Positions 7,758 through 43,089 are shown, numbered from the stretch's first letter. The stretch: 64,000 nt of DNA from Euglena gracilis (GCA_039621445.1 CP154954.1:25680954-25744953); one strand, 5' to 3'. Numbers and translations: made by a program. The notes: generated by a model from the sequence alone, not told the origin.

Positions 7758-7788
<31 letters not shown>

Positions 7789-13700: not shown

Positions 13701-16700
13701 CCTCTGGATGCCTCAGCAGGCAACCCTTCAGGCACACATCGCAGAGCCTAAAAAAAAAGCAACAAAAAGTGCCAAATGTCACCCAGCCTGTGTGGCACCA
13801 TCCGGGGAACACTGTCAAAGCTTCAAAAACGAGGGACTCGCAACGGGGGTTTCGGCCCTTTTTTGGGAAAATTCACGTGTCCCAGCGGTCAAATCCAGGG
13901 TTTTGACCCTTTTCAAAATGGTGCACAGGCTGAAAAACAGGCTATAAAAAAAACTCCAAAATTAGGCCTGTTCCCCAGGTCCCAACATCGGAAAATGATG
14001 CACACGCCACCGTGGAGGGTCTCCGCGGAACCAGGGGGTCAAAAGGATGGGTTCTACCGCCGGGTTTCAAAAAGATCGAAAATTTGCGCGAAAGCGCAAA
14101 CTAAAAATCAAAACCTTAAGTGCGAGTTAGGCCGCCTAAGTGAATCTGCTGTCAGAAATTAAAAGAAACACACATGTACACACGTGTGCAGAGACAAACA
14201 CACCTGCACATCCACACACATACACATACACACCCAGACACACCTTTTCACCTCTGGTTTGAAATAATCATGTAACCCCCCCAAGACCCGAACAATAAGA
14301 CCCACCGATTTTTTCGATTTTCGACCTTTTTGACCCGAAATCTGTGGGTTTCGGGTCACCAGGGGTCAAAAACGGGGCACCAGGGGTCGAAAAACGCTCA
14401 TTTTAGGCTCAAAAACAGTTTTTCTGGGGTCCCCAAGAAGACCCCCCTCCCTGATGGCGCAAAGCGCCAGAGACAGTGAATTTTTCCTCTGAAAAATTAC
14501 CAAAAACCCCAATTTAAGATGCAAAAAAATGAAGGAATTCCAAAAATTTTGGGATTTTTGACTTCAAAAAAAAACATGGAAAAAAGTCAATTTGTACCAA
14601 ATTTACATGGGGCGCGAAAGGCCAAAGAACCTGAAAAAAAAATTCTTCGGGCCCGGATCGGTCAACAAGGAATCCAAAAATAAGACCCCCCAAAAATAAG
14701 ACCCAGGTCTTATTTGGGGGGGGGGGGTTAACCATGCAATAAAGAAATGGGCACGGAGCAGCATGGCACTGGCACACTGGCGGCGGCATCCTCGAACGGC
14801 GGGTTGTTGTAGCAGTACGGGCACAGGGTATACGCCTTGTTCTCCCCGCCCTGCTGGTACACCACCAGCTGGAAGCCGTCGAGCGGGCACTCGATTCCCT
14901 TGTACTCCTGGGGAGGAAGGAAACCTCGAGGCACAACGTGGCCTGTTGACAGAGAGTTGACAGGATTTCAAAAAAAATGTGTGGAAGCTGAAAGAGAGTC
15001 CGACTGCTGGGGCCGAAGCAGCCAACTGGCGTGGACAAGCTTGGTGGAGTGGACCACATTCGGTGGGCAAATCAAGAACTGCACTGCAAAAAAAAACTGC
15101 AAAAAAAACCGCAAAAGAATGCTCTTCAAGTCTGTATCGATTGCTCAATACAGCAGTACAGACCAATTGTTACCATCCCTGCTCCTGCAAGCTTCAACGT
15201 TTTTGCAAAAAAAAAAAATGCAAAACGAATTCAGGCTCTTTTGGGGTCACATTGCATTCATATTTCCTCCTGGATTTTCTCACCTTTTTAGCATGTTATT
15301 TGTGATTTTATTTCATTGAAGGCATGCTTCAACTATTGAACTGAAATCGACCCTCGTAACTGAGAAGCACTTGTAAAGATTGTTCCTAAATTTAAAAATT
15401 GCATATCCCGTCCGCGTCTTTTGGGAGTTCTAAATTTCATTGAAAAACGAATCATCGTTGTTTTAAAACAAGAGGAATTGCAAACAAAAAGCAATTTCAA
15501 TCATTCTTGCCATCAACATCCAACACCCTCAGATGACACCAGTGGTGCTTCTTTGATGCTTTATGAATGTCACAATAAAATGCTTCACATCTGCTTTAAT
15601 ACATTGATTTTAATATGTGGCTAACTTAGAATCACAGATCACGTGTTATGATTTTGCGCAGGAAGAAAAAAAAACTCAGATCCTGCTTTACGCATTTCAT
15701 GTACAGATCATACAATTGCTTACCGACCCCCGGGGGGGGGGGAGGGGGGTCACTCCACTTTTTTAAAAACCAGTCAGTCACTCATTTTCAAAAAACCAGC
15801 CAGTCACTACCCCCCCCGGGGGGGGGGGGGGGTCGGCCACTCAGAAAAACGGCCACTTTCCAGTCACTTTAGGCCATTTTAGGCCCAAAAAAAATTTCCT
15901 CACTCAAGTCACTCAAGCCACTTTTGCCCACTCCTGGCCGACCCCCCCCCGGGGGGGGAGGGGTCCGGGCCAAAAACCAGTCAGTCACTCTAAAAAAACC
16001 AGTCACCCACCCCCCCCCGGGGGGGGGGGGGGGTGGTCAGTGCTTAAGCAATTGCCTGGTACAGATTTCCTCTCTTCTTTCTGGAAAACAATGAAAGCCT
16101 TCAAGCTGTTGCTTTTGTGAGATGCAAATAATCCTGCGACAAATTTTCAAAGTGAAAAAAAGCACAAAAAATGAAAGCATGCAACGTGATTTTGTGTCAA
16201 TGCAGCCAGCTAGACTAAAAGACTGGTCCACCTCAGCAGAAATGACAAGAAGGTTGAGAAGCAAAACGATGTGATCCTTGCTGTTTTTGCCCAAATGGAG
16301 CCAACCTTTCAGGAATGGTTGCTAAGCTCGATATTACCAACGTTGAATGGCAAACTGCTCGTTGCGTTCAGGAAGTATTGGGATATGTCGTGGTCCATCT
16401 CACCCGGATTCATTGGGTTCAAAACGTTATGCTGCAAAAAACTGCAGATATGCAGCAGACATTCATTTAGTGTGGTTCACAAAAGGCGTGAGAACCAGAA
16501 TTTTTTTGGTGTCCACAGATGAACCACAAATTATTTTTGGTGTCAAGTGAACCACAATTTTCCTTTTGGTGTCCACAAATGTACCACAAAAAGTTTATGT
16601 TCACAATTTTTGTTGTCCACAAAACTTGATTGTGAATTAATAAAAAACTCAGCACTTTTACAATACAAATGGATTGATCTTTATACACTTTAGACACCAA

Positions 16701-19700
16701 AACGGCCACTCTGGGAAGGCGGACACTTTGGGGGGGGGGTCAAATTTTGATCTGCGGCGCCTTTGGCGCCGAAATAAAATAGTCTCCTTGAGGGGGTAAA
16801 CCAAAATACGCGGAAAAATTTGGGCTGCTTTGGGGGGGGACTTTGAAGGGGGGGGGCAGTTTAACCAATCTCGGAAATTTTTCAAAAGGGTCGAAAATTC
16901 TGTTGATTTTGTTTTTGATGGTAAAGATATTTTGATTTTCTTTTTTGGAGAAGGGGAGCCTCCAGATGAGCTTGAAGGGGGACCTCCAAATGGGACTTTT
17001 TGCTTTGCTTAAAAAAAAAGGGGCAAAAAAACAAAGGGAAAAACAAAGGGAAAACAATTAAACCAGAATTTTCCTTGATAACAAGGATGAACTTGAAATG
17101 GCTCAAAATGATTAACAAAAACTATCAGTTTTCGGTCGAAATCATTCACCAATCTTCATCAATTTTCATAAATTTTCTTAAAAATTCATGTGAAAATTCT
17201 TAGAAGACAGAAAGGCGCAATTTCCCCAAAACGGCAAAAAAAAAAATGCCAAAAAAGGAAGGAAAGGCCCCAAAATAATATGTTATGGCCCAAAATAATG
17301 TGGTCAAAATATGCAGGAATGGGCAAATATGCTGTGGAAAAGTCCTGCAAAAACCTCAAAATATGCACTGAATGTGTGCAAAATATGCAAAATATGCACG
17401 TTTTTGGCAAAAAAAGGTGAAATATGAGCTAAATATGTAAAAACATATGCAACATATGCGCTCCGCTTTTTTCCCCTCGGATTGTTTCATAGCTGTTGAG
17501 AAAAAGGGATAATGATGCAAATGCCAGCAGGTGGTGGGAAATTTTTTGGTGTCCACTTGTGAACTACAAAAAATTGGTCCATATATGAGCCACAAGAAAT
17601 TCTGGTATCCACAAACGAATTACAAAAATATTTTGGTGTCCACAGGTGAAACACAAAAATATTCTTGGTGTCCACAATGAACCATTAAATGACATCCTTG
17701 GTGTACCACACAAATGAATGTCTGACATGAAGTTTTTGAGGAGAAATGTTGCAAAAAAAACAACTGCAAAAGGCTTCAAAATGTCAAAACTAAAAAGAAA
17801 CTGCAAAAAAAAAACCGCACAGTGCATATTTTCCCCCTCCCTGTTGGGATACTCCACTCAATTGTGCAGGTATTCCTCAACCATCCCTTTCCATCAACCA
17901 AGGGGCAGCAGAAACCGCAGACAGGAGAAATGAATTAGCTAGATTGTCCCCTCACCACAACAATGTCCCTCCAATATCGAGACATGTGTTGCATAGCAAT
18001 CATCCAGCTCATCCAAATTCTGCAATCTGAACTTGCGAAAAAAAGGCTGCTTGTGATAGAAGCAAACTTCGAGTGTTCCAAAGTGTTCCAAAAGTGTTCC
18101 AAAGTGCAGACCTTGATGGTCCCCCCCTGAGGGAGAGAATACGTCTGATCGCAATTCCCGCAATGGAGGCGTTGAGGCCTGAAGAAGGATGCGGGGCTCA
18201 ATGAGCACCAGGCGGGCAAGATCTGTGAAAATGTGGGCACGTTGACTTCTGCATGACAACAAACTTGTTGGAAACCAATCAATGAAGCAATCTCTGATTT
18301 TCCATTTTAAAGCCTTTCTCATTTCAGGGGGAAGCAAAAATTACAGCCTGTAGTGACCGTCTGGCTTGGTGAGAGCTGCGCAACTATCTCACACCGCTGC
18401 GGGATGAACTTCATGAACCGCATGCAGATGCCGCAACGAGTGAGTACCTTCCCTGATGAACCAGTCGCCAGGCAGACACTGAAGAGGCTAGGTCCCAGTG
18501 GGAAAGCAAGAGACACAGATGCCCACTTTCCACGTGCCTTTCAAGTCTGTGCAAGAAAGGTCGCCATTTGGATTCACTGAATGCTGACGCAAAACACAGC
18601 TCGCCCGAATTCACCCAAAGTGGTGGAAGGCGAGACCGGTGGACGAGACTTGGGTGAAGGAGGCCTCCATCAACTCGTCCATCCTCTCTGGAGGGACGGA
18701 AAAGCATTAACATGAATCACAGGTTCAGAGCACACATCCCGCCCCAAATATTAAACCCGCAGGAGGTTTCAACAAAATTTGGCCCCCTCCTTCTACGGAA
18801 GAACTGACAGGCAGAGAGCCGACGTTGTCAAACAGGGAAAATTCCTTTAAAAAGTCCTTTAGAAATATTTACCAGTTTTTTTTTGGCAGGTAAATTGGTA
18901 TTTTTCGGCCAGCCCAAGTGATGTACAGCTGGGATTTCGCAGAAATCGGAGAAATGTGGGCAAACTGAGGGCGTGGGACAAAATATATTTTGCCCCAGAA
19001 ATTTGATTTTCTCACCCAAATACAACCCTGAAATTTGATCCCCCCCCAAATCACAAACCCCCACCCAGGTATAAAAACGGGGGGGTTGACATTTGGGGGG
19101 GTTACATACATCAGAGCACATGCAACGATGAGAATCCCAAACGAATGCAGCCCTACACACTGGTGGGGAGGTCAGGAGGTGACAGGTAACTAAACAGAAC
19201 AGTGCCAATGACATTTTGGGTGATACATTGCAGCGCACAATATGGTTGGTTCACAATTGTGCGCACAATTGTGTGTGCCATCCGCCTTTTGTTTGTAATT
19301 GTCATCACAAAAAAAAATACGTCGCCAGGGGTGGTGGCAAAAAAAACTCGAAAAACACGACATTAAAAAATAAACGGAAACAAAAAAATTACGAAAGTTG
19401 CATTGTCATCCTTCAGGAGCTCCCTGGGGTACACTTTACTCCTGGAGAGGACCAGAAAGGTTTCACCTCCTCCGGGAAAAACTTTCCATTTCGCACAAAC
19501 GTTGTCACTGCAGAAAAGACAGAAGTTGACGAAAATTTTGGTCTCAGGGAAAAGTTGGGAGAAAAATTGCCCATAGTCAAAATTTTTCCAACAGAAATCA
19601 AAAAATCGCATGGAAAATAAACACGAAAAACCTTGCAAAAAAAAGCGGTTGTGTTTCCTCTCCGCTGCTTTCGTCCGATGCAGGCTGGGATGTGTGATCC

Positions 19701-22700
19701 ATATCCAGTGACTAGCTGCACCGATGTCTTTTTTTTGAAAACTTTTGAAATTGATTGATTGATCAGCAGACTTACAATTAATACTACTCAAAATGCATGA
19801 TAAAATCATCTAAACAAAGTGATTGAGGGAACGTGGTATGGTAGAGTGTCGTGTGTATAAACAACTCCATGTCGATATTCTAATGACATATGACTCACAT
19901 TGGGGGTTCGGAATTCATTTCGGTCTTGCAGAGTTTGATTTCGCTTGGAAAATTAAGGGACTTTTGGCAGGAAGCAAGCACCGATGCATTTCTGGAAATA
20001 CTCAAACTTGGCCTTGAAGATATCCAATGCCTGCGGCACCTGATAAACAGAAAATGTGGTATGAATGATTGAGAGATGTCACACAGGACTACACCTCTTG
20101 TCTTTTCAGGTGATGAACAAATCATTCAAGGGGGGTGGAGTGAAAAGCAGGAAGCTCTTCTCCTTCCAAAACCAATAATATCCACTTCAGAGTGGTTCCA
20201 TTCCAGGGAAATCGGGGTACAAAACCAACTTGATCCCAAGCTCCCCCAGGAACAGCTTCAAAAAGGGGGGAAAAGCTGGTGAACCGGCCAACCGGATGGG
20301 TGCCTGGGAGGGGGCTTTGCGGGGGGGGGGGGGGGGCGAGGGACACACGATGTCGTCGATGGTGGCCACCCCCGTGGCAATGCTGGTCACCTCCCGCTCG
20401 ATGTGGGCCCGCACCTTGGGCAGCACCAGCTCTGAGTCGATCTGCGGGTGGGGGGGGGCTGCGGTGCAATGACGCAGACAGGGGGCAGGCACCGCTGCCA
20501 GCCAACACGCTAAGTCTCCGGGTTGTTGATGGCCCTTTAATTGTGTGGGTGGCTCGTGCGCTGGGGTGCCTGTAGAAATGCCTGCAGAAGACCTTGCTCT
20601 TATGCGGTTCTTAAGGTAGCTCATGACCGCGAGGAATTTATCCCCATCTCCGTTTCTTTCTTCTTTCCCTTCTTTCTTCCTTTTTTCCTTCTTTTTTTCC
20701 CAGCCGATGGAAACTTCGGCCCAGAAGTTCATGGCATCCAACCAGTCATGTCCTCGCAGAAATCGTTCAGCAAAGCCCAAGAACGGTGCGGACAAATCCG
20801 TGCCGGAAGCAGCGGCGCACCCGGTGGTAGCCGTGGACCAGGATGATGCCCAGCTTGGTCGGCACCACCCGCCGCCCGGCTGTGCCGTGCCAGGGGAGGG
20901 GTGGGGGAAGCAACGTGACTCGGAACGGGCACGGGCACGGGAAACCAGCACCAGGGGGGGGAGGAGGGGCATCGTCCCGCAGCTGCCTCCCTGGCCGTCG
21001 ACAGCCTTGGCACTGGACAGAAACCATGCTGCCACGGCAGCAGCATAATGACGATGCAATTTGTAGCCGACCCCCGGGGGGGTCACTTCTACAATTCCAA
21101 AAACCAGTCACTCACTTTTTTCCCGGAAAACCAGTCAGCCACCCCCCCGGGAGGGGTCGGCCATTCTGCAATCCAAGGGAAATTCGACAACAAATATGAA
21201 AAAAGGCCAAAAAAAGATTTTCTCCGGCACCTTTGGAGCGGGGTCACTTTAGTGGTTTTTGCCAACACCCCACCGAGGGGAGGGGTCCAGGCCAAAAACT
21301 AGTCAGTCACTCCAAACAAAAAAAACCAGTCACCCACCCTGGGGAGGTAAGCAGTGACTAAGTGATGGTATGATCATGACACGGCACACCTTTGATGCCC
21401 ACGTAGTTGCGTTCACAGATGTTGTTGATGTGTGTGGGAATGCTGGCGTCCGTCCCGATGCCGTTCTGGAAAGGAATAACAAAAAAATCAAAAAAATGCA
21501 CCAGGCAACAGAGATACAATTATGCTCACAAAAGGTTGGTGCAGCATTGCAAGGATTAATGTAATAAATCCTCCTGAAGAAGAATTTCTGCACCTTTGTG
21601 TCCACCAAATTGTGTAAGGACTTGTTTTGTGAGGAGCGTTCGAAAGCCGAAAGAAAGGGGCCGGCAGCACCTTCTCCATCAGAGAGATCAGCTCGGCCTC
21701 CGTGAGGTAGTCCGGCGGCTCCGTCTTGCCCTCCCTCAGGGCCAGGCTCTGCACCTCGATTTCGTCCCCGACCTTCAGCTCCGGCAATCTGGCGTGAGTC
21801 AGTTGGCCGTCTGCCTGCGGCACTGGCCGTGTGGTTCAAACCCGATTTGGAATTAGGAATGCTGGACCCACCACCCAAATCGGGGTTGGGGCCCTTAAAC
21901 ACACCCTTTAAATTTAAGCAATCGTATGAATAGAACTATATATATTTTCATTAGTGATCTGTTGTGGATGATGTCACACGTTTCTGCATGGACCACGCAG
22001 TAACGTTTGCAACACCGAAGGTGACGGGAGATACCTTTTGCTCTTAAATTTCTGATGTTTTTGCACGCAGCTTAGACATGAGAACTTGCACAGGCTCAAT
22101 ACAATAGGTCAAAAATTTGAAAACTTTTCCGAAAAATGGCTGATGATGGGGGGGGGGGGGTCAATTTTGGGCGGTCGGATTTTCACCAACAATTCCTCGC
22201 CTTAATACCCTTGGGCTGGTCCTGTAAACTCCGGGATCTTTTAGCGGGAGTGTTGATGATGTGTGCACAATGGCTGGCACCACCCCACACAGGTTTTTAT
22301 GTTGCGTTGTTCAAAGTTGGGGTCCAATTCTTCTCACCGCAGTGTGAACCTCCTCGCCCCCTTGCCTGAGGCTGAGTTTGGATTGGACCACGGAAGGAGT
22401 CAGTCAACGAAAAAGACTTGCTACCACAGGATTTGGTAACAATTTTGCACAGCCCACTACAGCGGAGCTGGCGGTGTGGGGCAGGGCCGTGCCAGTGTAC
22501 GCACCATCACCCATAGTTTGGCATAGGCTGTGGGGCTGGGGGTTGGGGGTTGGGTATGAACCGCAAATTTTTCAGGTGCACGTGTATTTTTTTTCGTGGT
22601 TTTCAGTTGCCCAACTGAGGCAGGAAAGGTGAATACAAGTTACTTGGCATACAGCTGGCCTTTTTTCAAAATGAAGACAGAAACAAAACAAAATTCTTTT

Positions 22701-25700
22701 TGCTAAAAAAAAACAAAAATCATGTGGTGTGGACCAGGCTGAACTTGACCAACCCCAGGGGAGGAATGGGGGTCTCAACGTGCCCTGGAGTGCCTGGGCA
22801 GGCAGGCAGGCAGTTGGGCACCCCCCTGGGGGGGAGATCGGGGCAGGCCGAGCCGTGGGCCAAAAAGGGCCCGAAAATGGGCTTTTCCGGGCCTCCGACC
22901 CATTCGGCGCTGGAAATGGCTGAATGGCCGGGGGCCCAGGCACTTTTGACCATGCGCCCCCCCCCCCCGGGGGGGGGGGGGGGGCGGTCAGATCTTGGGG
23001 TGCCTTGGGGTGGCGGCCCAAACAGGCACCCCCTGCCCCGGGTGGGGGCGGCCTCACCTTCACATCCAGGCTGGTGTGGCCAGCATCGCGCCACACCGCG
23101 CGTCGGAGAACGCTGCCCAGGGGGTGATCTCGATGAAGCCCAGGGAGTCCATCAGCCGCCCGACGACCTGGAAGACCTCGTCCCCGATGCGGAACAGCGC
23201 CTTGGTGCGGGTGTACTTGCAGTCCGCGGACACGGAGGCCAGGAACTGCCGCGAGATGTAGTCGTAGAGCCTGTGAGGGGGGTAGGTTTATTTTTGGACA
23301 CATATTTTTTTCGTGGGGGAAAATAATTGCAAAAAAAACAAAAAAAACAACAAGAGCAATAACAAAACGATTCCGATAAGTGCTACAAATGACAACAAAA
23401 ATCTAACACTAACACGAACATAAAAAAAAATAATACCAATAACAATAATAACAGTAATAATAATACCAGTGAGAAAGATGATAACAATGACGACGACAAC
23501 GACGATGATAACAACGATATGCCATGTTTTGGCACTTCAGCTGCGGTAAAAAGTAAAACGCTTCTTGTACTTGCCTTCACAAAACGTCGAAAAGGCGAAA
23601 AGGTCCCAAATAGGGAGTTGGCCAAACGAGAACGAACAACAAAGAGGGTCCCAAGAACTAGAACGCTGATGTCGCCGGCTGTTCGACTCCTCCCCCGACC
23701 AATTTCGTTAGGAAACAAGCAGTCCATTCACCCAGACCTTCCAATGACTGTCACTACCATATTAATGATATTACGATGGGATGTGGTTGGAACAATCGGG
23801 ACAGAGGAGACAGAGCCTTGCATGATACCATACGCTGTAACTTTAGAAAATTGTTGGCAAATGCGCAAAGGACCACTTACACAACAGTGGGAATGGTCCA
23901 TTGTGCAACTGCGGGAACGGACGACTCCTGCAAATGCAAAAGTAATTGTTTTGCGCAATTGCACAAAAAAAAGGACACCTGCACAACTGGTATATTAAGA
24001 TTGTGGATTTGCTGCAATTGTGTGAATGGTTCAATTCGATACATTATTAAAAGGTGAAATTTGACAAACGGACCGCATTCTGGGTAAAGATTCCGGTTTC
24101 GGCAGTTGAGCCTGTGAGGAATTATTGTATTACCCCCAAAACATCGAAATAAATGAGAATTCAAAAGGATATTAGGATATCCCTTGAAAAACGTCAGTAC
24201 AAAGGTGCCCTTAATTCCAGTCTGTTTGTGGAAAAAATGAGGTGCGGAATATTGCCTGCCATGATGTATTTGCTGACTTAATAATCTCCAGGGTCATATG
24301 GTACAAAACCCTGACTGACACCTTCTTTGGCAAACGTAGTTAGATGTGCTGTACAAACACCTCGAATTTGTGGACGCTGTGTTTTCACTGTCGTCTTGTC
24401 TCAGTCATCCCAATTTTAGGGCAACAAAAAATGGTGGTTAATTGTGGATCACTTGTGACATCGTATATGAACCAATTGACTTGTTCCTTTGCTCATTTCT
24501 CGCACAAGGACCACTCAAAAATACCAACACTATTCACAGGGAGGGGGTCCAGATTATGGGAATACAAGAGAGATGAGACCATCAACTTTCCAGTTCCACA
24601 AACAGACTGGCCAAGGAGATATTGGCTGGTTATAACATGGTTCCTTTGTGCAACAGAAACCTGTTTTTGCTGCTGTATGGGCGTCCAGAGCATCAAAATA
24701 AGTGAGGTTATGTGGCCGGCCTGCCACATCGCGTCGCTTCGCGACCCCCCCCCCCCCGGGGGCCAGGTTAGAGGCTGCAAAATTCTGGCTGGCTAGAAAA
24801 AGACTGCCGGCTGGCCCCCCACCTCCCTCTCATAGTGGTCCCCCAGCTGGAACTGGGCCCGAATGGAGTCAAAGTGCCCCAAATATGCAAAAAAAGGTGG
24901 GTTATGCAAAAAATTGCCCTAGAATTTTGACCTCGCCAGCCTTTTTTGAGAATTTTTGGCGCCCCCAAACGGCCAAAGGTGCTATTTGGGGCACTTTTGG
25001 GCAAAAAAAAATTCAAAAGCACCTGAAAGACAAATTTGACCCTTTTTGGGGGGGGTCCTGGGTAGCCCCCCCCCCCCCGAGGGTCGGTCCGGACCCCCCT
25101 GGGCAGGGGGGGGGTCCAGACCAGGCATTATTTTTTAAGGCGCCTTAAAAAAAACCTTAAAAAACCTTAAAAACCCTTAAATTTTTTTGCCAGAAATGTC
25201 TTAAAAAACCTTAAAAAAAATCACCCCGGGGAAGTTTTTCTTCCCTGTGATGACCTTAAAAAACCTTAAAAATTCTCCCTGAGAAAAAATTTTCTTGCAC
25301 CAAACAAAGAATGGCATGTCTGAAACCCCGCATAAAGACAGTCAATGCAGAAGCAGTTGTGAACAAACAACCGGGTTTTTTGCCAAGGTTTCTGGCATTA
25401 GGGAGGTAGTGTGCAATGTTCAGTTGAAGTTGTTTTTGGCCTCATCCTTTTGGCAGATAAGCGTACTGAATTGATGATGTGCAAGGACCTGTGACTGTTG
25501 GACATTTTTCTGCAACAGCACTGCGTCACAAGAAGACAAAATTTGGCACCTGAAATACCCGGGATGTGTCGGGCCGGAGTCCATTTTCTGGTTTTCTCCA
25601 TCATTTTTCCCTTGAAAAACGTAAAACACACCAGTTGTTGTGCATAATTTGTGGGGAGTGAGTCCCACCTTTAGAGTTTTCGGTCCCGCCACGCCGGGGA

Positions 25701-28446
25701 AACACGAGGTTTTTCCAGGCAACCACCACCGGATTCGGGGAGGATTGGCACTTAATTTTACTTAGGCGGCCGGATTTGCACTTAAGGGGTTTTTTCTTTG
25801 AAATGGACGCATTTGCGCAAATGCGCAAATTTTACAAAATTTCTGCGACCCTTTACCCTGACACACGGAGAACAGCTTATGAACTGTTACACCCCACTGT
25901 TGAGGGGATCCTTTTATTAAAAACACCAAAAACCTTCTACTCCAGCACATCCCACCATGTGCACAGGTGAAATGGGGGAATCACAAATGCCTGAGAACGC
26001 AAGAAATACAATTTCTGGCAACCACGTAACATTGCTGACCCAGAACTCGAAACCATCCATTTTTTTTCCATTGCAATTACTTTAAATTTCTGACCCTATT
26101 CAAGACATTTGCTTGCCTGTTGACAATGACTGTCCTCATGGACCGCCCTGATCCCCATGCTTCGCCCTAGGCTTCTTCCTTGTGCGTTCCAAAGCCACAG
26201 AGGAGTCTGAAGCCATCGGGCCATCTTCGGGGTCTGACACTTTAGCTGAGGGAAAAAATGCCTTAAAACCCCTTAAAATTTTTTTAAAATCCTCAAAATG
26301 CCTTAAAAAACCTTTAAAAACCTTTAAAAACGCCTTAAAATTTTTTGCAAAATCTCGCCTTAAAAAAAATAATGCCTGGTCCAGACCCCCATCCAGTACA
26401 GGAGGGGGGTTACACCCTTCTTATATCGAACTCTGTTCAGGCCCCGGGGGTCGAACCTCCCCCGTGCAAACACTTACGGGGACCCAGGGTCTGTTTCAGG
26501 GTCAGTTGGTTCAAGTACCTCAAGGTTCAAGTACTTCAAGGTTGGTTCAAGTACTTTAGGGTCTGTTTCAGGGTTAGTTGGTTCAAGTTCAAGTGCTCGC
26601 AGGGACGGGGATTGGGCAGTGACGCTCCGGGGGCCGGGGGGCGGGGGGGGGGGGGCATGCCCAGGGCCCCGCGGCTGACACACCGCCAGGAGGCGCCGAG
26701 CTCGTTCTCCGTCGCGCTGCGCATCGGGGTGATGGGCGGGTGGTCGCCCACGTCCACCCCGCCCCGGGGGGCACTGACCCCGTCCTTAAGCAGCGCCCGC
26801 ACGTACCCGCCGTACACTGTGGGGGCGACACGGGGCTCCATGCACGGAGGCCCGGGCACGCAGTGGGGTGGACAGGGTCCTTGCCCACATGATGGTCAGG
26901 TGGGTTGACAGCACACTGGCGATGCAAATTGTTCATCAGGCGCAGGAAACCGCTCAAATATAAAACCCCGAACCCTTCAAATGTAAACCCCGGCTGATAA
27001 ACCCCGCCACTTCTAAACAAATTCTCCCTCGCGGCGACCCAACAAAGAGACAGCGTTTAACCCCTTCTCGTGGTGAAGATGAATGAAAGGCACCGGGATG
27101 GGATTGGAACACGGCGGCGGCCCCCCGCAGGTCGAACGAGGGGTGGAACTTGGTGCTCTCCGTCCGGGGGTACGAGATGTAGCCCGCGGTGTACAGCTGC
27201 TCCGCCATCTGCCAGGAGGCGTGGGCACGCCGCGATGCAGGGGGGCATGGCCGGGCTGCAGGGATTTTTTTTAAGACCGGGGGAGGGGGCGTCCCCCCAC
27301 CCACCCACCCCCTGGGGGGGGGCTGGGGGGAGGTCTTAGAGGGCCCACTCACTTTTCCCCGAAAAAGGCCAAAATCGCGAAAAATGCTTAAAATAGCACC
27401 ATTTTCAAAAAGCCCCTGGGGGCTCGGCCGGACCCAACCACCCTACCCCCCTCCCCCCACCGGGGTCCAAGACTAAAAAAAAAACCCTGGCCAGGTTGCT
27501 GGTTTCTTGGCTGCCAGACAAAAAAAAAACACCGCGGGGGGGGGAAACAAGGGCTCAAAAGTGAGCTGGTTTTTGAAGTCTGGGTGGGCATGCACAAATA
27601 AATTCAAGAACAAGTATGTTGACCCCAAGGTCATCAGCAACTCGGAAAAAATCGACGGCTGTCTCACCAGGGAGGGGGCTGTGATGGAGGGGGCGACGTC
27701 CCACGGCCAGGGCTGGACGGGAACGCCGGGTGGGGGGGGGACGACCCCCCACCCACCATGGCACCGCCCAAAGAAATTCCCTCATCGCAAAAAGAAAATT
27801 TCGACCAAAAAATCTGCCCCCAGAGATATACGGGAAGGGGTGTGGGGGGGAGGGTCGGACCCTCGCCACCCACCACTGCACCAGGATGGGGGTGGGGGGG
27901 TTGACTCCCCCACCCACCACCCACAGGTTTGCGGGATTCCCATACAGCCATTCCCATGGCTCAGCAGGACCTCAGCCCCATGATACCCGCATCGCCTCGT
28001 GGGGCCCAATGCCGAGGCGCGTGGACGCCGCCTTCAGCATCTCCACCGTGTTCATGCCCCCCGGCTTGCTCCTGGTGAAGGGGGGGGGCAGACCGGCAGA
28101 GGCATCCCTGGGCCTATGGGCCCTGGGCACACATTTGCTGCGCACTGATGATGCGCGCGAACTGTTGCTGCAGCACAGGTGCTACCCGGGAATCTCGTCG
28201 AGACCATTGCCATTGAAGCGAACGAGGAAGGGACGTCAGGCAAAAAGAAAGAGATCGATTGGCAACGTGGCAAACAGTAGCCTTGATAAATACCTGGACA
28301 AGGAGGGATGGATTGATAACTAGACAAAAAGCATTTATCACTGCTATGTCCCTCAGACACGTTCAGTGTCCAAAAACCTCTCCTGGTTGATTGATTTTTA
28401 TTAGTATTGTGTATATAATATTATATATTATTATACATATAACACT

Positions 28447-28477
<31 letters not shown>

Positions 28478-31400
28478 ACCCATATGAACGTACCTTTCTC
28501 CTTGTATTCCGCCAACCGGTTTCAACGCTTCTTTACACAGCACCTGCCCCCCAATGGCAACTGTCTGTTCTGGCCTGCATACAGGCAAGGGAAGGGGAAC
28601 ACTTTGTCTCCTTCTTCTTCGTCACGTCGATCACCTTAGCTACCTTTTTGTCTGCCACCATCTGAAAACCGCGAGGAGGGGCTTGGGAAATAGGCAGGGC
28701 GAAGTCGTTCCCGAAAGAAAAAAAAATGTGCCAGGCGCACCCCGACACAATGCAATACTGTCCCGGACACGCACCCTGGCCACAACCAAGCCGGTGAACG
28801 GCAATCGATCGGAAAGCAATTTCACTGCACCAACATTCACGCATGCAGGGCCTATCTGCGCCATCTGGCGACACCAGTTTGTTTGCCGATTTTATTCCTG
28901 CCCCCTCCCCCACATAAAAAATGTAAATCGGAAAGCAGAAAAGAGGAATGACCGACTCAACAGGGACCCAGTCCAGAAGGGCAAGGCATGAGGTGTCCGA
29001 GCCACAAATCCTTTCGTCCGCTTCCACAAGCAATCCCCAACCCCCCCATTGATGGCGAAAGGCCCTTATTCAGAGACGGCGGGGCTGCCGCCACAGCACG
29101 CCGCACGCCTTGTGCAGGGTCTGGGCGATGGGGAGGTCGAAGATGCGCCCGCGGTCCCACTCCAGGGTGAATGTGTGGCCGCCCTTGAAGCAGGTCGGCA
29201 CCAGCCGCCAGAAACTCTCTGGGAGGGGGCGTGGAGCTTCGCCATGAGTTATGAATCCACGGCAAAGATGCATCCCGGCCAGGGGTTTTTTAGGGCCCGG
29301 GGTCCGGACCCACCCACCAACCCCCTGACCCCCTGGGGGACCCCCCCGGGGGGACTTGGGGGATGCTTCCGCACCGTGTGCACCGTGTGCGGCACCGTGT
29401 GCACCGTGTGAGAAGAATCACTCTACAAATGCCCAGCTTTCACAAATCGTCAGCAGTGCCTCATCTTGCATTCTTATTTTAGTGTAAGCTGAGTGATGTT
29501 GAACAGCAGAGGGGGAAAGATGATTTGTTGTCCAAAGAGCAGCATGCATCATGTTTCAGGCTGGTGTTGCCCCAATCGGTCCATGATTGTGTGACAGGCA
29601 AGGCTGTAGATTTGAATGAGTGGGATGAACGGGCAAATCAGTGACGGTAGATGGAATTCATCTGTTTGCGGGGTATGTTTGACAAAATATTTTGCACCAC
29701 CATCATTTCGTCACCAAGCACCTCTGATGATGCTGGGCGATGCTGGGCGATGCTGGATTTTTGGAGACCAGAGGTAGGGTTCCGATGCTGGGCAATGCTG
29801 GGCGATGCCGGCATTTTTTTTGCCTATTTTGAAGAATTAATCCCGTATTTATGATTAATAAGCACTTTTGGCCACTTTTTCTGACTGCTTTCGGTTAATT
29901 TTGACTGCTTTTGGGCATTTTTTTTGGCCCATTTTAAAGTACTTTTGCTGCTCTTTGGACATTTTTGGTCAATTTTCACCATTTGTGACTGTTTTTGCCA
30001 CTTTTGTCGGCTTTTGCCCATTCGCGGGTTAGGACTGTCAAAGGTGGGTTGCCGACCGCAGCCGACTGCAGCCGACCGCGCAACTTTTTTCTAATTGATG
30101 TCGATTTTTCAGTGAGAATGAGGAATCAGGCTCATTTTTATCCCAGATTTTGAGATTTTTCTGGCTCATCTGGTTCATATTGTCATTTACGGCGATTTTT
30201 GGCCGCTTTGGGCATTTTAGGTCGCTGTTTTCCCCTTTTGGCCCATTTGTCACCGTAATTCACCAATTTTGACTTATTTTGACCATTTTTGGCCACTTTT
30301 TGCCCACTTCTTGCAATTTTGGGCCACTTTGTCCTGCTCTTGGGCATTTTGGGCCATTTTTGACCTTTTAAAGCCATTTTCGACCTTTTTTTTGTTATTT
30401 TTGCCCCTTTTTTGGTCTATTTTTGGTCCAATTTGACCATTTTTGAGCATTTTGCGCCAGTTTGTTGCCAAAAGTGAACAAAAGCTGCTAAAGTGACCAA
30501 AATTGGCCAACACCACTTTGGACATTTTTTTTGTTATTTTTGTCTGCTTTTGGTAACTTTTTGGTAAATTTTTGTTTTACACCTGATTCTTGCCACACGG
30601 TGCCACACGGTGCACGCGGTGCACACGGTGCACACGGTGCCGCACACGGTGCACACGGTGCCGCACACGGTGCACACGGTGCCGCACACGGTGCACAAGG
30701 TGCCGCACACGGTGCACACGGTGCCGCACACGGTGCACACGGTGCCGCACACGGTGCACACGATGCCGCACACGGTGCGGAACACACGGTGCACACGGTG
30801 CGGAAGCATCCCCTTGGGGGGACCACTTGGGAGTAAATTTTGGGGTCCAAAAAAAAAAACTCTCGGCACTTCGTGCCGAAAATACAGGAAAACCCTGCCT
30901 CCGGCAGGGTCCACTTGGCCTGACCCCCCCCCCGGGGGAGGCTCGGCCGCGACCCATCCACCCCCCCCACAGTTCTGGCGCCGCAAGGCAGAGGCACACC
31001 AGGCTTGAAAGACATGATTTCGTCATGTCGCTTTACGCAGAACCCAAGGGTCGGTGTTTGGCAGGGCCCGTAGCTGATCAGCCTGCGGCCAAGACAGCCA
31101 GCGAGGGGCTCTGATTGAGTGAATATTTTCTTGCAATGAGCCCTGAACTGCGCAAACATTTGCAAGCCCAACCACCATTCCAGGTATAAAACTTGTTGTT
31201 CAAAATACGGAAGAGATCAGGGGGTTGCATCCCCCCCCTGCCGGCAGTCCAGCTCAGAGGCTGGTAAATTTTGGATGGCTGGAAAAAAGGCACTGTTTGA
31301 CTGCCCCCTCCTATTGTGGTCCCAATGCCCAGGTCGAACTGGGTTCACAAAGGGTCCAACTGGGGTAGTTTCAAAAATCCAACAGAACTGATTCCCGAAA

Positions 31401-34275
31401 TCAACAACATACACCAAATTTGAGCTGGGTGGTCAACTTTATTGACGAACTTTTCCCATTCAACCCATTTCATCACCCACCAAAGCAAAGTTACACCAGG
31501 CCGTGCAGGCGAGAACACAGGAATTGAAACTTATTCGTGGGTCTGGCTGGAACCGCAAGGGGTGGGAGGGTCCAGCCAGTCAGCCGCCTTTTCAGGAAAG
31601 AAAGCTGATATTAAATCCCGATGTATGTGTTGCCTTAACCCCAGTCAACAGAGGGGCTGACTGTTCTTTGACCGAGACACAAAGGGAAGGTTGTGTCTCG
31701 GTCAAAGGTTGTAACCGAGGCTCAGGCAAGGCAGCACTAAAAGCCATAACGCCCAACCTCATCTGGGAACAACGTTTTGACACAGGCAAACACACTTCGC
31801 GTCCAGCGTGTTGTACTTGCCCTGGAAATACTTCGTCTGATACCGCGTGAAGGCAACCCCAACCTTCAGATCCAGCTCCTGGGCATCGGGGTGGGTGGGG
31901 GGGGGGAGTGGGATGGTCTCCATCTGTTCATGCCGCCAACACACAAACCAGGCAAGTGCGGACTGAGGACCCAAAGCACATGCTCCCCAACCTGCCGGGC
32001 ATCGACGGAGAGGGACTCAAGCTCGTTCGGCTTCACCAAAGCATCCATTGCCCTGTGGGGAAAGGGTCCGAGGTCTTTGAGGTCTTTGTTAGCCAAGCAT
32101 ACCACCGGGCTTCTTCTATTCATCAACCCCTGGGGTGCCATGTGCTGTGGGGTACCTGCCTGTCACGATCCATGGGGAGTTGCTATACAAACTGCCCACC
32201 CCAAAACTGCGGAGGTGGGAAATGCCCCTCCTCCTCCTCCTAGAACCCCCTGCGAAAGCCTGGACTTGACCGAATTGAAATGGACTGCAACAAAGAAGCG
32301 AATGCCAAGCCACAATGCCAATAAATAAAGTCACTGGTCTTAAAGTCGCAAGAGACTCTCAAATTGTCCAAGCAATGAATCAACGCCAGCAGAGACACAG
32401 GAAAGTGTCCAGTCTGTATGAAAATGACCAAACTGCACACATTACTAATCATTTCTCTTTCGACAACTGGCATGCATTAAACCACCCCCAAAGATCATGA
32501 ACACAAACCCCGCATGCCAACCTCTGGATGTCACTGGCGGTGATGGCAGAGAATTTGGCCCGGTAAATGTTGGACATGCCCTGGTTGCCCCGGATGTTCT
32601 TCTCCACGATGGAGATGACCTGCAGGGGGGGAATGCAATATGGACCCTCAAAAATGCGACACAAAAAAAAATGCAAACAAGCATAAATGAACACAAAAAA
32701 GTGCAAGTGGCATTTAAAATCCCTTAGGAGCTCCCCGGGATGTACATTGCTGGAGAGGAGTGAGGAAAATTGTCGGCTAACCCGGGGAAAATTTTTTATT
32801 TGCATAAAAATAAGCATTTTGTTGACAAAAAAAGCAAAAAAATGACAAAAAAAGACAAATTTTTGATCTTGGGTGAAAATCAGAATCAACGAGGAATTCT
32901 TTCATAGGTCAAGAAATTCCTTAAGAAAAATCCAAAAAATCGCCGGAAAAAAACACAAAAAAAAAACGCCAAAAATGTCTTTGTGTTCCCCCTGTGGCTG
33001 CATCGGTGCTGGAGATTTTCTCTGCATCTGTTGGGACCATTCTCGAACTGGAAAAAAAATCAGGTTTGATTGTATGTTTTGGGGGGGGGAGCCCACGCAA
33101 AACAAAAAAAGGGGAAATCTTCTCAAAAATGTCTAAATGTGCTGAGTCGAAACTGAAAACTGGCACCCCCCCCCCCTGGGAAACTGTCACCTGACAGGTC
33201 GGCCAAAACCGGGGACCCTGACAACTTCCTATCATGACAGGTTGGCCGGTCCCACGGACCCTGACAATTTCCTGGTGGGGAGCCTGACAGTATCCTGGGT
33301 AGGGCACTTCAGGGGGAAATCAATGAAAAATGACTCCAACAGGTTGGACGGTACCGGGGACCCTAACAACTTCCTATGCTGACAAGTTGGCCAATACCCG
33401 GGACCCTGACAGTTTCCCAGGCGGGACCCTGACAGGATCTCGGGCATGACAGTTTCCCAGGGGGGTAGGTAGGAACATAAACAGAAGACGCAAAAGAAAA
33501 CATTGAGTTTCCTGGCATAAAAAAAAACGTCAACAAATGCAAAAAAAGCCAAAATAACACATGCGTGTTTCCCCCTGAGGGGTTGGGAATACTTCAAAGC
33601 AGATGTTTTCCCCTTCTCGATCACAATCCAGCCACAACACGAGGTAGTCGATACCCTTGGACTCTGCCTGAGGAGGAAGAGCGCAAAGCCAACAAGCTTG
33701 CATAGGGGGGGGGTGAGAGAAGAAAACACACACAAGACGCTTCCTTGGGACTTGATACCAAGTCAGGCAGGCTCAGGCCCCCCCCCCAATAGACCACACA
33801 TCCTTCTGCAAAAAGGTCATTGACTGGTTGCAAAGGGTTCAAAGACTTCAAGGTCAGATGCAGGGGAGGGGCTCGTTGCCGCGAGGTTGGGGTTTTAGTG
33901 TTAACAGATGAAAGGAGTTAAGTTGCAAAATACATATTTCTCAGGTTTTTTTTGTTTCAGAATTGGTTTTCACCGACCTTCCCCCAATATCCCAGGCACA
34001 GTGATGTTCCACGAATGTACCATTGGGGCTTTTGAGGATGATGCATATGCAGTCAACGGGATTTTAAAGACACACGGTGCCTTGAGCAGGGTTTTCCCCC
34101 CAGAAGTGGTCACCTGACAAGTCAGCTGATACGGGCCCAAGGTGATAACGTCCGGGGTGGGTCAACCTGACGGGGTAACAACACAGCTTTCCAGGGGGGG
34201 GGGGTATGAGAAAAGGGAATGCCTTGAGGTGGGCCACGACGTTGGTTGACGGGTTGGACTCGTTCTTCAGGGTCT
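3854..34275 (-). CDS. TOP3B: DNA topoisomerase III beta (type IA), 25 identified exons; canonical N-terminal ~85 aa not found
   Basis: Motifs in order: [17 protein letters not shown] (Toprim), [49 protein letters not shown] (catalytic Tyr), [28 protein letters not shown], Cys zinc-ribbon repeats and an RG-rich tail. All 24 junctions are phase-consistent with GT/GC-AG ends. Confidence 0.96.
4508..4661 (-). CDS. TOP3B: TOP3B exon ([13 protein letters not shown]...KSPL...[14 protein letters not shown])
   Basis: Last zinc ribbon, KSPL and GCxxCD motifs. Confidence 0.9.
5476..5524 (-). CDS. TOP3B: TOP3B exon ([16 protein letters not shown])
   Basis: CNxC motif; phases fit both neighbours. Confidence 0.85.
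6268..6401 (-). CDS. TOP3B: TOP3B exon ([15 protein letters not shown]...[13 protein letters not shown])
   Basis: CxxCxHPxC motif; cag/gt ends. Confidence 0.92.
6581..7633. mobile_element. Foldback-like element built from GTAC motifs
   Basis: Ends ggggttctgggg...gtacgtacctgg are inverted; internal ~77-bp tandem units at 7033-7330. Confidence 0.65.
7663..7800. repeat. (CCAT)n microsatellite
   Basis: Direct reading. Confidence 0.95.
7869..14140. mobile_element. DNA transposon (outer), CTTAGG-TIR family
   Basis: 24-bp perfect TIR cttaggcggcctaactcgcactta; 5-bp TSD tgaat (7864-7868, 14141-14145); no intact transposase seen. Confidence 0.88.
10039..13686. mobile_element. DNA transposon (inner, nested), CTTAGG-TIR family
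   Basis: 32-bp perfect TIR cttaggcggccgtgaaggcacttaagggtttt; 5-bp TSD tatgt (10034-10038, 13687-13691); GC-rich; about 20 gcgcacctgcgc motifs. Confidence 0.92.
14778..14907 (-). CDS. TOP3B: TOP3B exon ([14 protein letters not shown]...[16 protein letters not shown])
   Basis: CPLD...CPYCYN motif; cag/gt ends. Confidence 0.94.
15720..16048. repeat. Dispersed ~320-bp repeat (aaaaccagtcagtcact motifs); second copy at 21065-21362
   Basis: Colinear similarity between the two copies. Confidence 0.65.
18112..18178 (-). CDS. TOP3B: TOP3B exon ([22 protein letters not shown])
   Basis: RLHCxxCD.TY.LPQ motif; cag/gt ends. Confidence 0.93.
18395..18452 (-). CDS. TOP3B: TOP3B exon ([20 protein letters not shown])
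   Basis: Zinc ribbon RCGxC; cag/gt ends. Confidence 0.92.
18637..18687 (-). CDS. TOP3B: TOP3B exon ([17 protein letters not shown])
   Basis: MDELMExSF motif; cag/gt ends. Confidence 0.9.
19982..20039 (-). CDS. TOP3B: TOP3B exon ([19 protein letters not shown])
   Basis: LDxFKxKFxYF motif; cag/gt ends. Confidence 0.9.
20349..20441 (-). CDS. TOP3B: TOP3B exon ([31 protein letters not shown])
   Basis: IDxELVLP motif; cag/gt ends. Confidence 0.93.
20821..20879 (-). CDS. TOP3B: TOP3B exon ([20 protein letters not shown])
   Basis: PTxLG..LVHGY motif; cag/gt ends. Confidence 0.93.
21390..21465 (-). CDS. TOP3B: TOP3B exon ([25 protein letters not shown])
   Basis: GIGTDAS motif; cag/gt ends. Confidence 0.95.
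21671..21788 (-). CDS. TOP3B: TOP3B exon (LPELKVGDE...[16 protein letters not shown])
   Basis: [10 protein letters not shown] motif; cag/gt ends. Confidence 0.95.
23097..23270 (-). CDS. TOP3B: TOP3B exon ([19 protein letters not shown]...[15 protein letters not shown])
   Basis: Read directly from the sequence (not in the ORF track frame); cag/gt ends. Confidence 0.93.
25122..26378. mobile_element. hAT-like non-autonomous element
   Basis: TIR caggcattatttttt; perfect 8-bp TSD gtccagac; subterminal ccttaaaa repeats; carries a solo CTTAGG TIR at 25761-25786. Confidence 0.88.
26684..26816 (-). CDS. TOP3B: TOP3B exon ([10 protein letters not shown]...[22 protein letters not shown])
   Basis: DHPPITP motif; cag/gt ends. 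Confidence 0.95.
27094..27208 (-). CDS. TOP3B: TOP3B exon with catalytic tyrosine ([18 protein letters not shown]...SHP)
   Basis: GYISYPRT motif; cag/gt ends. Confidence 0.96.
27259..27489. mobile_element. hAT-like MITE (older)
   Basis: caggg(a/t)ttttttt TIR; degenerate TSD; related copy at 48059-48310. Confidence 0.6.
27987..28071 (-). CDS. TOP3B: TOP3B exon ([28 protein letters not shown])
   Basis: NTVEML...LG motif; cag/gt ends. Confidence 0.93.
28603..28661 (-). CDS. TOP3B: TOP3B exon ([20 protein letters not shown])
   Basis: cag/gt ends, phase fits neighbours. Confidence 0.88.
29109..29218 (-). CDS. TOP3B: TOP3B exon (ESFWRLVP...[17 protein letters not shown]), GC donor
   Basis: WDRGRIFD motif; phase requires AAG|GCGTGC donor. 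Confidence 0.9.
29359..30813. mobile_element. TIR element (PIF/Harbinger-like), nested in a caggg...ccctg MITE (29280-30897)
   Basis: About 31-bp TIR ggggatgcttccgcaccgtgtgcaccgtgtg; 3-bp TSD ttg; subterminal cacacggtg repeats. Confidence 0.75.
30590..30803. repeat. 21-bp minisatellite (cacacggtgccgcacacggtg)
   Basis: Direct reading; expanded subterminal repeat of the 29359-30813 element. Confidence 0.92.
31000..31082 (-). CDS. TOP3B: TOP3B exon ([27 protein letters not shown])
   Basis: [12 protein letters not shown] motif; cag/gt ends. Confidence 0.95.
31796..31878 (-). CDS. TOP3B: TOP3B exon ([28 protein letters not shown])
   Basis: Highly conserved motif; cag/gt ends. Confidence 0.95.
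31992..32052 (-). CDS. TOP3B: TOP3B exon ([20 protein letters not shown])
   Basis: SVDARQ motif; cag/gt ends. Confidence 0.93.
32522..32619 (-). CDS. TOP3B: TOP3B exon ([11 protein letters not shown]...[14 protein letters not shown])
   Basis: RAKFSAIT motif; cag/gt ends. Confidence 0.93.
33170..33466. mobile_element. MITE
   Basis: TIR cccccctgggaaactgtca; internal accctgaca repeats. Confidence 0.65.
33593..33667 (-). CDS. TOP3B: TOP3B exon ([25 protein letters not shown])
   Basis: Toprim DxD motif; cag/gt ends. Confidence 0.95.
34223..34275 (-). CDS. TOP3B: TOP3B exon ([18 protein letters not shown]), GC donor
   Basis: cag acceptor; AAG|GCATTC donor; aligns by eye to the 'TEKKEANPKLNMVKFLQ' region. 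Confidence 0.7.
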
Positions 34276-34589
34276 CTGTGGAAAAGCAGGGAGAGGAAAT
34301 CCTGCGATCATTCGGGAAACGTTATCGCTGGAGAGTCAGCACCCTGCTGGTTTACAATCCTGCTGGTTTGTGCTGAAGGTGCACATGCTGCTTACCGGGT
34401 GACGCAAATAGGGCCAAGGGTGGGATTGGTGCTCTCGTACATCAAACGGAGGGAAACACACACCCACTGTTACGACACTTGGAACTGGTTCTGAATCATT
34501 GGCTGAAGTGGCTTGGATACTGCAGCCGCCCGTAAGAACACAGGGAGCGATATTACATCACACACCACAGAATACGTCAGCGAGACATC

Positions 34590-40158: not shown

Positions 40159-40316
40159 CCCATTCCAGGCCATTCCAGGCCATTCCAGGCCATTCTAGGC
40201 CATTCTAGGCCATTTTAGGCCATTTTAGGCCATTTTAGGCCATTTTAGGCCATTATAGGTCATTTTAGGCCATTTTAGGCCATTTTAGGCCATTTTAGGC
40301 CATTTCAGGCCATTTT
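40159..40316. repeat. 10-bp tandem repeat (ccattttagg/ccattccagg); also at 41378-41449
   Basis: Direct reading. Confidence 0.92.

Positions 40317-42201: not shown

Positions 42202-43089
<888 letters not shown>

Follow-up and report, generated by a model that had tools for sequence, protein, structure and literature searches.

Short CAG...CTG DNA elements with 8-bp target-site duplications in Euglena gracilis as a candidate source of nonconventional introns

Introduction

The nonconventional (NC) introns of euglenids are removed from RNA according to a code that has been dissected genetically: CAG and CTG are each required, a 5' spacer of 3 nt and a 3' spacer of 5 nt separate them from the exons, pairing adjoining CAG/CTG is needed, and a purine starts the 3' exon (PMC12501133, PNAS 2025). 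Where these introns came from, and why their borders are asymmetric, are open questions in the field. Here, four elements, E1 to E4, are described in a stretch of 64,000 nt of the Euglena gracilis genome (GCA_039621445.1, CP154954.1:25680954-25744953; one strand, hereafter the window, with positions counted from its first letter). Their inverted termini are of the CAG...CTG type and they are flanked by target-site duplications (TSDs) of 8 bp, which is the sum of the two NC spacers. It is fairly probable that elements of this kind were the physical source of euglenid NC introns.

The notion that NC introns arose from transposable elements of the miniature inverted-repeat type (MITEs) was stated in 2014 (PMC3935182) and repeated in 2016 (PMC4770533) and 2018. 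A review of 2024 called CAG/CTG a terminal inverted repeat (TIR) and mentioned TSD-like repeats (PMC11282704), and the 2025 study still referred to the origin of NC introns as unclear (PMC12501133). According to the authors of the 2014 paper, no transposable element had then been identified in euglenids (PMC3935182). Merlin DNA transposons were reported from E. gracilis in 2021, with 8-bp TSDs and with TIRs every one of which starts with GG (PMC8101967). The MITE origin and the 8-nt repeat of a young gapC intron are already in print. A literature search to which subscription journals and bioRxiv supplements did not belong found no paper on free CAG...CTG elements with an 8-bp TSD in a euglenid, on an assignment of such elements to hAT, or on the equality of 3+5 with TSD length.

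Results

Four elements with inverted CA...TG ends and 8-bp duplications

A preliminary description of the window had claimed three elements with CAG-type...CTG termini and perfect 8-bp TSDs, and direct reading bears this out at 25122-26378, 39559-39869 and 55491-55782 (E1, E2 and E3; Table 1). E4, which that description did not list, was added by scans of identical 8-mer pairs and of TIR-bearing CA...TG pairs. The inverted termini are of the type CA(G/T)GC...GCCTG, with CAT at one end of E2 and E4, and all four elements combine a TIR match of 10-12/12 with a TSD match of 8/8. The duplication is exactly 8 bp in E2, E3 and E4, where the adjoining bases differ; the repeat of E1 allows readings from 8 to 10 bp, as the flanking G and C equal the last and first base of the element.

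Table 1. Positions of the elements, their duplications, related sequences and the host gene in the window.
Feature	Positions	Strand	Description and basis
E1, TSD copy 1	25114..25121	.	GTCCAGAC; sequence read, 8-mer pair and CA...TG pair scans
E1	25122..26378	.	1257-bp non-coding element; within conventional intron 11 of the TOP3B-like gene
E1, TSD copy 2	26379..26386	.	GTCCAGAC; sequence read
E2, TSD copy 1	39551..39558	.	ATGTAAAG; sequence read, CA...TG pair scan
E2	39559..39869	.	311-bp MITE; asymmetric ends (left CATGC..., right ...GCCTG)
E2, TSD copy 2	39870..39877	.	ATGTAAAG; sequence read
E3, TSD copy 1	55483..55490	.	ATTTGGCC; sequence read, CA...TG pair scan
E3	55491..55782	.	292-bp MITE; TIR CAGGCTTCTTTTTAAG, 16/16
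E3, TSD copy 2	55783..55790	.	ATTTGGCC; sequence read
E4, TSD copy 1	15701..15708	.	GTACAGAT; 8-mer pair scan, CA...TG pair scan
E4	15709..16058	.	350-bp MITE; within conventional intron 20 of the TOP3B-like gene
E4, TSD copy 2	16059..16066	.	GTACAGAT; 8-mer pair scan
Empty paralogous site of E2	45158..45225	.	uninterrupted flanking repeat with one ACGTAAAG and no element
Copy of an internal piece of E1	35168..35409	.	87% copy of element positions 308-547 (240 bp); no recognisable termini
Candidate older element	16456..17724	.	same layout; TIR CAGACATTCATT, 12/12; flanking 8-mers ATATGCAG and ACATGAAG (6/8); in intron 20
DNA topoisomerase III-beta-like gene	4501..34285	-	24 exons, residues 82-814 of homologue P0003; ~30 kb
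Conventional intron 11	23271..26683	-	GT...AG, 3413 nt; contains E1
Conventional intron 20	14908..18111	-	GT...AG, 3204 nt; contains E4 and the candidate older element 16456-17724

The ends differ in detail. E1 has termini of the CAGGCATTATTTT... type, a TIR of about 22 bp that consists of CAGGCATTA, a T-run and AAGGCG, with arms that differ by 2 T in length, and numerous CCTTAAAA repeats in both of its subterminal regions. E2 begins with CATGCTTGTGCTTACC, and its right end, as reverse complement, reads CAGGCTTGCGCTTAGT; its interior holds palindromes and abundant G/C runs. E4 ends in CATACAATTGCTTACC and CAGGCAATTGCTTAAG and repeats the asymmetry of E2, with CATAC..GCTTACC on the left and GCTTAAG..GCCTG on the right. 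Because E2 and E4 share this asymmetry, CAT(G/A)C..GCTTACC at one end and CAGGC..GCTTA(A/G) at the other, they form one family. The common build of E2, E3 and E4 consists of a TIR, blocks of G/C homopolymer and a centre rich in A/T.

The pairing of such ends with perfect duplications is far above chance. When 8-bp flank identity was tallied for all CA...TG pairs in the window with at least 10/12 TIR matches (n=2233), the numbers of pairs with 0 to 8 matching positions were 262, 592, 672, 428, 188, 67, 17, 3 and 4, respectively. The four pairs with perfect flanks are E1-E4, against 0.03 expected from 0.25^8. A second scan, for perfect non-simple 8-mer flanks together with CAG/CAT/CGG...CTG/ATG/CCG ends, returned 21 pairs; among these, E1-E4 have 10-12/12 TIR matches, a tandem-array pair (7437-7564) has 9, and the other 16 have at most 5.

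E2 is a real insertion, because the paralogous sequence at 45158-45225, which matches the flanks of E2, once joined, at 89.7% identity over 68 bp, runs through the insertion point with a single copy of the target. No empty site for E1, E3 or E4 was found within the 64-kb window. The elements are small, 292-350 bp in E2-E4 and 1257 bp in E1, and lack coding capacity; the two open reading frames (ORFs) of at least 100 aa in E1 contain no Pfam domain. Given the TIRs, the TSD of fixed length, the empty site and the absence of coding capacity, it is nearly certain that E1-E4 are insertions of non-autonomous cut-and-paste DNA transposons of the MITE type.

The surroundings of two elements have features of their own. 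The target of E1 (25094-25121 / 26379-26406) is a near-palindrome in a context of G-runs and C-runs, GGGGGTCCAGACCCCC; similar blocks of G/C runs recur in the window (near 22950-22990 and 27300, among others) and are possibly remains of related elements. Tandem arrays with a 10-bp unit, AGGCCATTTT, accompanied by scattered GGCCATTTT-like words, occupy 40167-40316, 41376-41449 and ~55400-55870, and E3 sits in such DNA.

Superfamily assignment

The superfamily that fits best is most likely hAT, in view of the 8-bp TSD, the target preference for T2 and A7, the short TIRs beginning with CAG and the subterminal repeats of E1. In the four TSDs, GTCCAGAC, ATGTAAAG, ATTTGGCC and GTACAGAT, T stands at position 2 in 4/4 and A at position 7 in 3/4, a small sample, and the hAT element Hermes makes 8-bp TSDs of the form nTnnnnAn (PMC2803484). 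The label 'hAT-like' had been given in the preliminary description; the TSD length, the target bias and the CAG-type termini speak for it, and membership is unproven since there is no transposase in the window. No hAT DDE core with C-terminal dimerisation domain was detected by Pfam among the 229 ORFs of at least 100 aa in the window as a whole or among 264 smaller ones (55-99 aa) located outside 4.5-34.3 kb.

This missing transposase could also mean that E1-E4 belong to another superfamily that makes 8-bp TSDs, P-like or undescribed, which would touch the label and not the link to introns. The CAT left end of two elements points the same way, as does the hAT terminal consensus, YARNG: CAGGC fits it in 4/5 positions, the fifth base being C and not G, and CATGC and CATAC fit fewer. 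Such an assignment is nevertheless doubtful, as T2 in 4/4 and A7 in 3/4 of the TSDs match the target of Hermes and hAT (PMC2803484) and Merlin, with TIRs starting in GG, is ruled out (PMC8101967). Merlin identity was rejected on the grounds that all eight termini of E1-E4, with boundaries fixed by the TSDs, begin with CA, and a Merlin TIR needs 5'-GG.

Fit of the elements to the 3+5 rule

The preliminary description held that excision of an element with 3+5 flanking nucleotides restores the pre-insertion message, and this arithmetic is right: when a duplicated target T1-T8 is cut 3 nt before and 5 nt after the element, ...T1-T5 is joined to T6-T8... With 3+5 nt of TSD counted as intron, CAG falls at +4..+6 and CTG at -8..-6 in both orientations of E1 and E3, and E2 and E4 present CAT at one end. 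Position 6 of the TSD, which would become the first base of the 3' exon, is G, A, G and G on the plus strand, a purine in 4/4, and G, C, A and T on the minus strand, a purine in 2/4. The termini pair with each other in the predicted RNA folds of E3 and E1 (minimum free energy and centroid), and the fold of E3 has a z-score of -5.3, with 0/100 shuffles folding as well.

In the published assay, every tested substitution within CAG or CTG gave defects, including CAG to CAT (PMC12501133). The CAT/CTG end pair of E2 and E4 suggests, in the light of that defect, that these two elements would fail in NC splicing.

Comparison with published nonconventional introns

As the finding that would speak against a transposon origin, the preliminary description had named, beforehand, the lack of any TSD-like signal in young NC introns. 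The published junction tables were checked for it and contain three perfect 8-nt repeats (a slash marks the border between exon, in capitals, and intron). Intron 4 of gapC in E. agilis, present in strain ACOI 323 only, reads GTCCC/aac-cattaccttg...caaggtatg-gtccc/AAC, with the 8-nt repeat GTCCCAAC outside inverted CAT...ATG ends; the authors noted 'eight nucleotide direct repeats' and suggested double-strand-break repair (PMC4770533). In intron 12 of tubB in Lepocinclis spirogyroides, ATTCCT/aac-caggcc...ggcctg-ttcct/AACAA, the repeat is exactly 8 nt, and in intron 13 of tubB in Monomorphina pyrum, TATCCC/tcc-catacctctg...cagaggtatg-atccc/TCCCAA, the TIR matches in 10/10 positions and the repeat extends 2 nt further (PMC3935182). 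These perfect cases sit around CA(G/T)...(C/A)TG inverted ends, and their 8-nt repeats have T at position 2 in 3/3 and A at position 7 in 2/3.

Excess identity at the junctions, the check proposed in the preliminary description, was sought in the published tables only. The last 5 nt of the exon were compared with the last 5 nt of the intron, and the first 3 nt of the intron with the first 3 nt of the following exon, by hand counts in which small errors are possible. In the 2014 tables (PMC3935182), 133/272 positions were identical over the 34 rows of type N or N/I; the 2016 tables (PMC4770533) gave 173/448 over 56 rows, or 157/432 without gapC intron 4. These bulk counts proved non-specific. 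The published percentages of 'slidable' introns in E. agilis, 82% of CAG-CTG introns (129,984/157,875) vs 94.6% of GT-AG introns (148,480/156,999) (PMC12501133 datasets), were dropped as a TSD test for the same lack of specificity, GT-AG introns being slidable more often.

The termini also invite comparison. Many tabulated NC introns start with nnnCAGG and end with CCTGnnnnn, and several read CAGGC (PMC3935182, PMC4770533). When published introns were compared over 20 nt at each end, intron 10 of tubB in E. gracilis (256/264 nt; 5' CAGGCCTCTTTTG, 3' AAGAAGCCTTG) was found to resemble E3 (292 nt; CAGGCTTCTTTTT and AAGAAGCCTG), with identity at 11/13 positions at the 5' end and at 8/8 before the last bases at the 3' end. 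This intron is confined to E. gracilis (PMC3935182). In addition, the tested E. agilis intron EaNC-INT10 starts with CAGGCTTGC, as does the right TIR of E2. Both matches are suggestive and, with so many comparisons possible, are not proof.

A separate pattern concerns the insertion positions. At tubB positions 8, 12 and 13 (PMC3935182, Table S2), NC introns with unrelated end types (CAG/CTG, CAT/ATG, CTG/CAG and CAA/TTG, depending on the species) occupy the same exon position after ...TCCC, which suggests independent insertion, more than once, at a favoured target rather than common descent.

Host gene and search for nonconventional introns in the window

The only recognisable gene encodes, on the minus strand, DNA topoisomerase III domains with the TOP3B zinc ribbon, as found in the Pfam scan. 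Protein searches gave a single homologue, P0003 (843 aa), at 70-76% identity, and identity is ~75% across the 24 exons. The exons, at least 24 in number, are short (49-174 nt) with a GC3 of 88%, and the introns reach 8.4 kb. Intron borders were modelled, not read from cDNA, by scoring, against P0003, each in-frame donor/acceptor pair around the 23 gaps. The best-scoring solutions include a GT-AG or GC-AG pair in 19/23 introns, and in the other four (9, 12, 19 and 21) such a pair falls short of the best by 1-3 score units. All 23 chosen acceptors end in CAG, mostly after a C-rich tract, and most donors start with GTG; the acceptor upstream of the first exon found is conventional too and of the CAG type.

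Three NC introns with spacers of 3 nt (ahead of CAG) and 5 nt (behind CTG) had been claimed for this window, with no coordinates, in the preliminary description, and none could be located. An alternative border pair of intron 9 (27985..27208, minus strand), TAT-CAT...CTG-GCAGA, has the 3+5 layout with CAT instead of CAG; it scores 3 units above the GT-AG pair, a difference that rests on one aligned residue. E1 and E4 lie within GT-AG introns, and E2 and E3 in repeat-rich DNA without a recognisable gene, which may include 5' introns of the TOP3B-like gene.

The exons for residues 1-81 (the Toprim part) were searched for in the window by local alignment, motif search and a 34-homologue profile, with no convincing result; the best candidate, near 58514 (minus strand), matches in 7 residues. 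With the TOP3B exons as training set, a codon-bias scan picked only those exons, an (AGC)n tract and tandem repeats. The long ORFs at 0.5-4.5 kb are non-coding or repeat-derived in appearance, and no Rfam family reaches the gathering threshold in the window. The 827-bp (AGC)n microsatellite at 42225-43051 is open in all six frames and passes for coding in codon-bias scans.

Intron 6, which is conventional, contains an array of 9 tandem 21-bp copies of CACACGGTGCCGCACACGGTG and, at a distance of 1.2 kb, a perfect inverted partner of 40 nt (29371-29410, 30594-30801), each located 150-400 nt from an end of the intron. Within intron 23, at 4765-4830, a 17-bp mini-palindrome, CAGGCTAAAATAGCCTG, is followed 22 bp downstream by a second CAGGCTATTTTAACC; the ends are of the CAGGC type with nearly nothing between them, and the structure could be a collapsed element or footprint.

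Other repeat structures

Beyond the related sequences in Table 1, a 372-bp element at 34591-34962, with the TIR CACAACTGATGT (12/12) and the flanking 8-mers AGACATCA and CGACACCA (6/8), may be an older insertion of another family with an 8-bp TSD and CAC ends. Large inverted repeats at 8278-8670, 9488-9900, 6723-7555 and 35916-36462 have arms of up to 135 nt, the longest being 9488-9622 / 9713-9847 with 89% complementarity. They are built on recurring TTGCGC-N4-GCGCAA hairpin units, similar GCGC hairpins occur within E1-E3, and they probably represent other foldback or MITE families.

Discussion

A proposed transposon origin of nonconventional introns

The proposal that such MITEs are introner-like sources of NC introns, made in the preliminary description, has gained from the geometry and from the three young published introns; it has not gained from the window itself, where none of the four copies is exonic and no NC intron was located. 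It is coherent and sharpens an existing hypothesis into a directly testable form. At the insertion of E1-E4, a transposase made a staggered 8-bp cut in the target, and its repair left those 8 bp duplicated on each side of the inverted termini. Once transcribed, the TIRs would pair and set CAG opposite CUG, and the NC excision machinery would cut 3 nt to the 5' side of CAG and 5 nt to the 3' side of CUG. Such a cut would remove the element and exactly one copy of the TSD (3+5=8) and bring back the uninterrupted message. An exonic insertion would be harmless from the outset, and the TSD would decay afterwards.

The artificial introns of the 2025 study bear on this proposal. Fully artificial introns of 50 bp with arbitrary spacers were spliced, so that junction repeats are not functionally required (PMC12501133). 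Because the spacer sequence is functionally free, a historical cause of the repeats is the simpler reading.

Several observations weigh against an origin from these elements. Organisms without NC introns also have hAT elements with CAG termini and 8-bp TSDs, which are general traits of that superfamily. All 23 modelled introns of the TOP3B-like gene are compatible with GT/GC-AG borders, 0/4 copies lie in recognisable exons of the window, and the splicing of E1-E4 from RNA is predicted only, by their layout. The predicted folds pair the TSD bases in E1 and some of them in E3, so that the 3 and 5 bases are not left unpaired. The failure predicted for E2 and E4, and the window's lack of a transposase, belong here as well. 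Conventional rows of the same junction tables score equally high (e.g. 6/8) through the consensus CAG/GT...CAG/R, and the rows include orthologues, so that they are not independent and the bulk counts are non-specific. Where intron ends were ambiguous, the authors chose them to fit the CAG consensus, which makes the split into 5 and 3 nt in the three perfect cases a matter of author placement (PMC3935182); the 8-nt repeat that abuts the inverted ends is independent of that placement. Finally, E. agilis has, in addition, 43,309 CGG-CCG and 4,018 CTG-CAG NC introns (PMC12501133 datasets), which this type of family alone leaves unexplained.

The resemblance could instead be a coincidence, E1-E4 being ordinary MITEs without a historical tie to NC introns, from a superfamily that looks alike everywhere, and 3+5=8 mere numerology. 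The non-exonic position of all four copies, two of them in GT-AG introns, fits such an explanation, and so do the 23 modelled introns without a demonstrable NC intron, the equal performance of conventional introns in the bulk direct-repeat statistic, and the higher share of slidable introns among the GT-AG introns of E. agilis (PMC12501133). A coincidence is nonetheless unlikely. It does not account for three published NC introns with perfect 8-nt repeats beside inverted CA(G/T)...(C/A)TG ends, one of them strain-specific, which function does not explain either, the spacers being free of sequence requirement (PMC12501133), nor for the likeness between the ends of E3 and an E. gracilis NC intron of similar length.

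Double-strand-break repair, through staggered ends or filler DNA, is the origin that Milanowski et al. read from the repeat of gapC intron 4 in 2016 (PMC4770533), and it would leave the MITEs of the window unrelated to NC introns. It is improbable: filler is not expected to bring CAGG...CCTG inverted termini each time, the targets fit the preference of a transposase, and four sites other than NC introns show the same layout of an 8-bp repeat and a TIR, an empty paralogue being present for one of the four. Least credible of all is the reverse direction, in which excised circular NC introns are copied back into DNA and give rise to the free elements, for although release of NC introns as full-length circles has been reported (PMC11282704) and a circle would hold both ends 8 nt apart, a fixed 8-bp duplication with nTnnnnAn bias is the signature left by a DDE transposase, the free copies have no 3+5 spacer inside their ends, and neither poly(A) nor another mark of reverse transcription is visible at E1-E3.

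The free copies, with the same termini and an 8-bp duplication, turn the MITE-origin analogy into named candidate families and provide a simple reason for the 3+5 rule. If NC introns do derive from CAG-terminal transposons, the host would have evolved or co-opted a pathway of RNA excision, independent of the spliceosome, by which a single class of transposons is neutralised, which would help to account for genomes that tolerate so many introns. A bolder version may be ventured, with somewhat less than an even chance of being right: NC splicing would be an RNA-level excision system matched to a single transposon class, with offsets of 3 and 5 that exist in order to equal the 8-bp TSD of hAT-like MITEs with CAG termini. 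Each new insertion into an exon would then be exactly erased from the message, the NC introns, hundreds of thousands in number, would for the most part be decayed copies, and intronic copies such as E1 would also be cut out as circles.

Comparison with known systems

Euglenid NC introns share with E1-E4 the pairing CAGG...CCTG ends, the 8 nt of flank common to both sides (3+5) and the purine at TSD position 6 (plus strand, 4/4). Their sizes, from tens of nt to more than 1 kb, include the range of E1-E4, and the ends of E3 come near those of tubB intron 10. Unlike NC introns, E1-E4 interrupt no coding sequence, and E2 and E4 have a CAT/CTG pair. The Merlin elements of E. gracilis are likewise euglenid DNA transposons with an 8-bp TSD, and differ in a TIR with 5'-GG where E1-E4 have CA.

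Among DNA transposons, hAT MITEs and non-autonomous elements of the Ac/Ds, hobo and Hermes type have the same 8-bp TSD, nTnnnnAn bias and short CAG TIR, the subterminal repeats found in E1, and a non-coding interior. E1-E4 depart from them in having no autonomous partner seen in the window, in the fifth terminal base, which departs from YARNG, and in a great richness in G/C homopolymer runs.

The introner elements of Micromonas, dinoflagellates and fungi, together with the MITE-derived noncanonical introns of Fritillaria and Amoebophrya, offer the nearest parallel for the proposed origin, as small transposons with TIR and TSD that turned into introns, the TSD aiding exact removal (PMC11282704). 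Those introns depend on the spliceosome and on splice sites in the element or the TSD, whereas the euglenid elements would be removed by the NC pathway, guided by CAG/CTG and with the full length of the TSD contained in the cut offsets.

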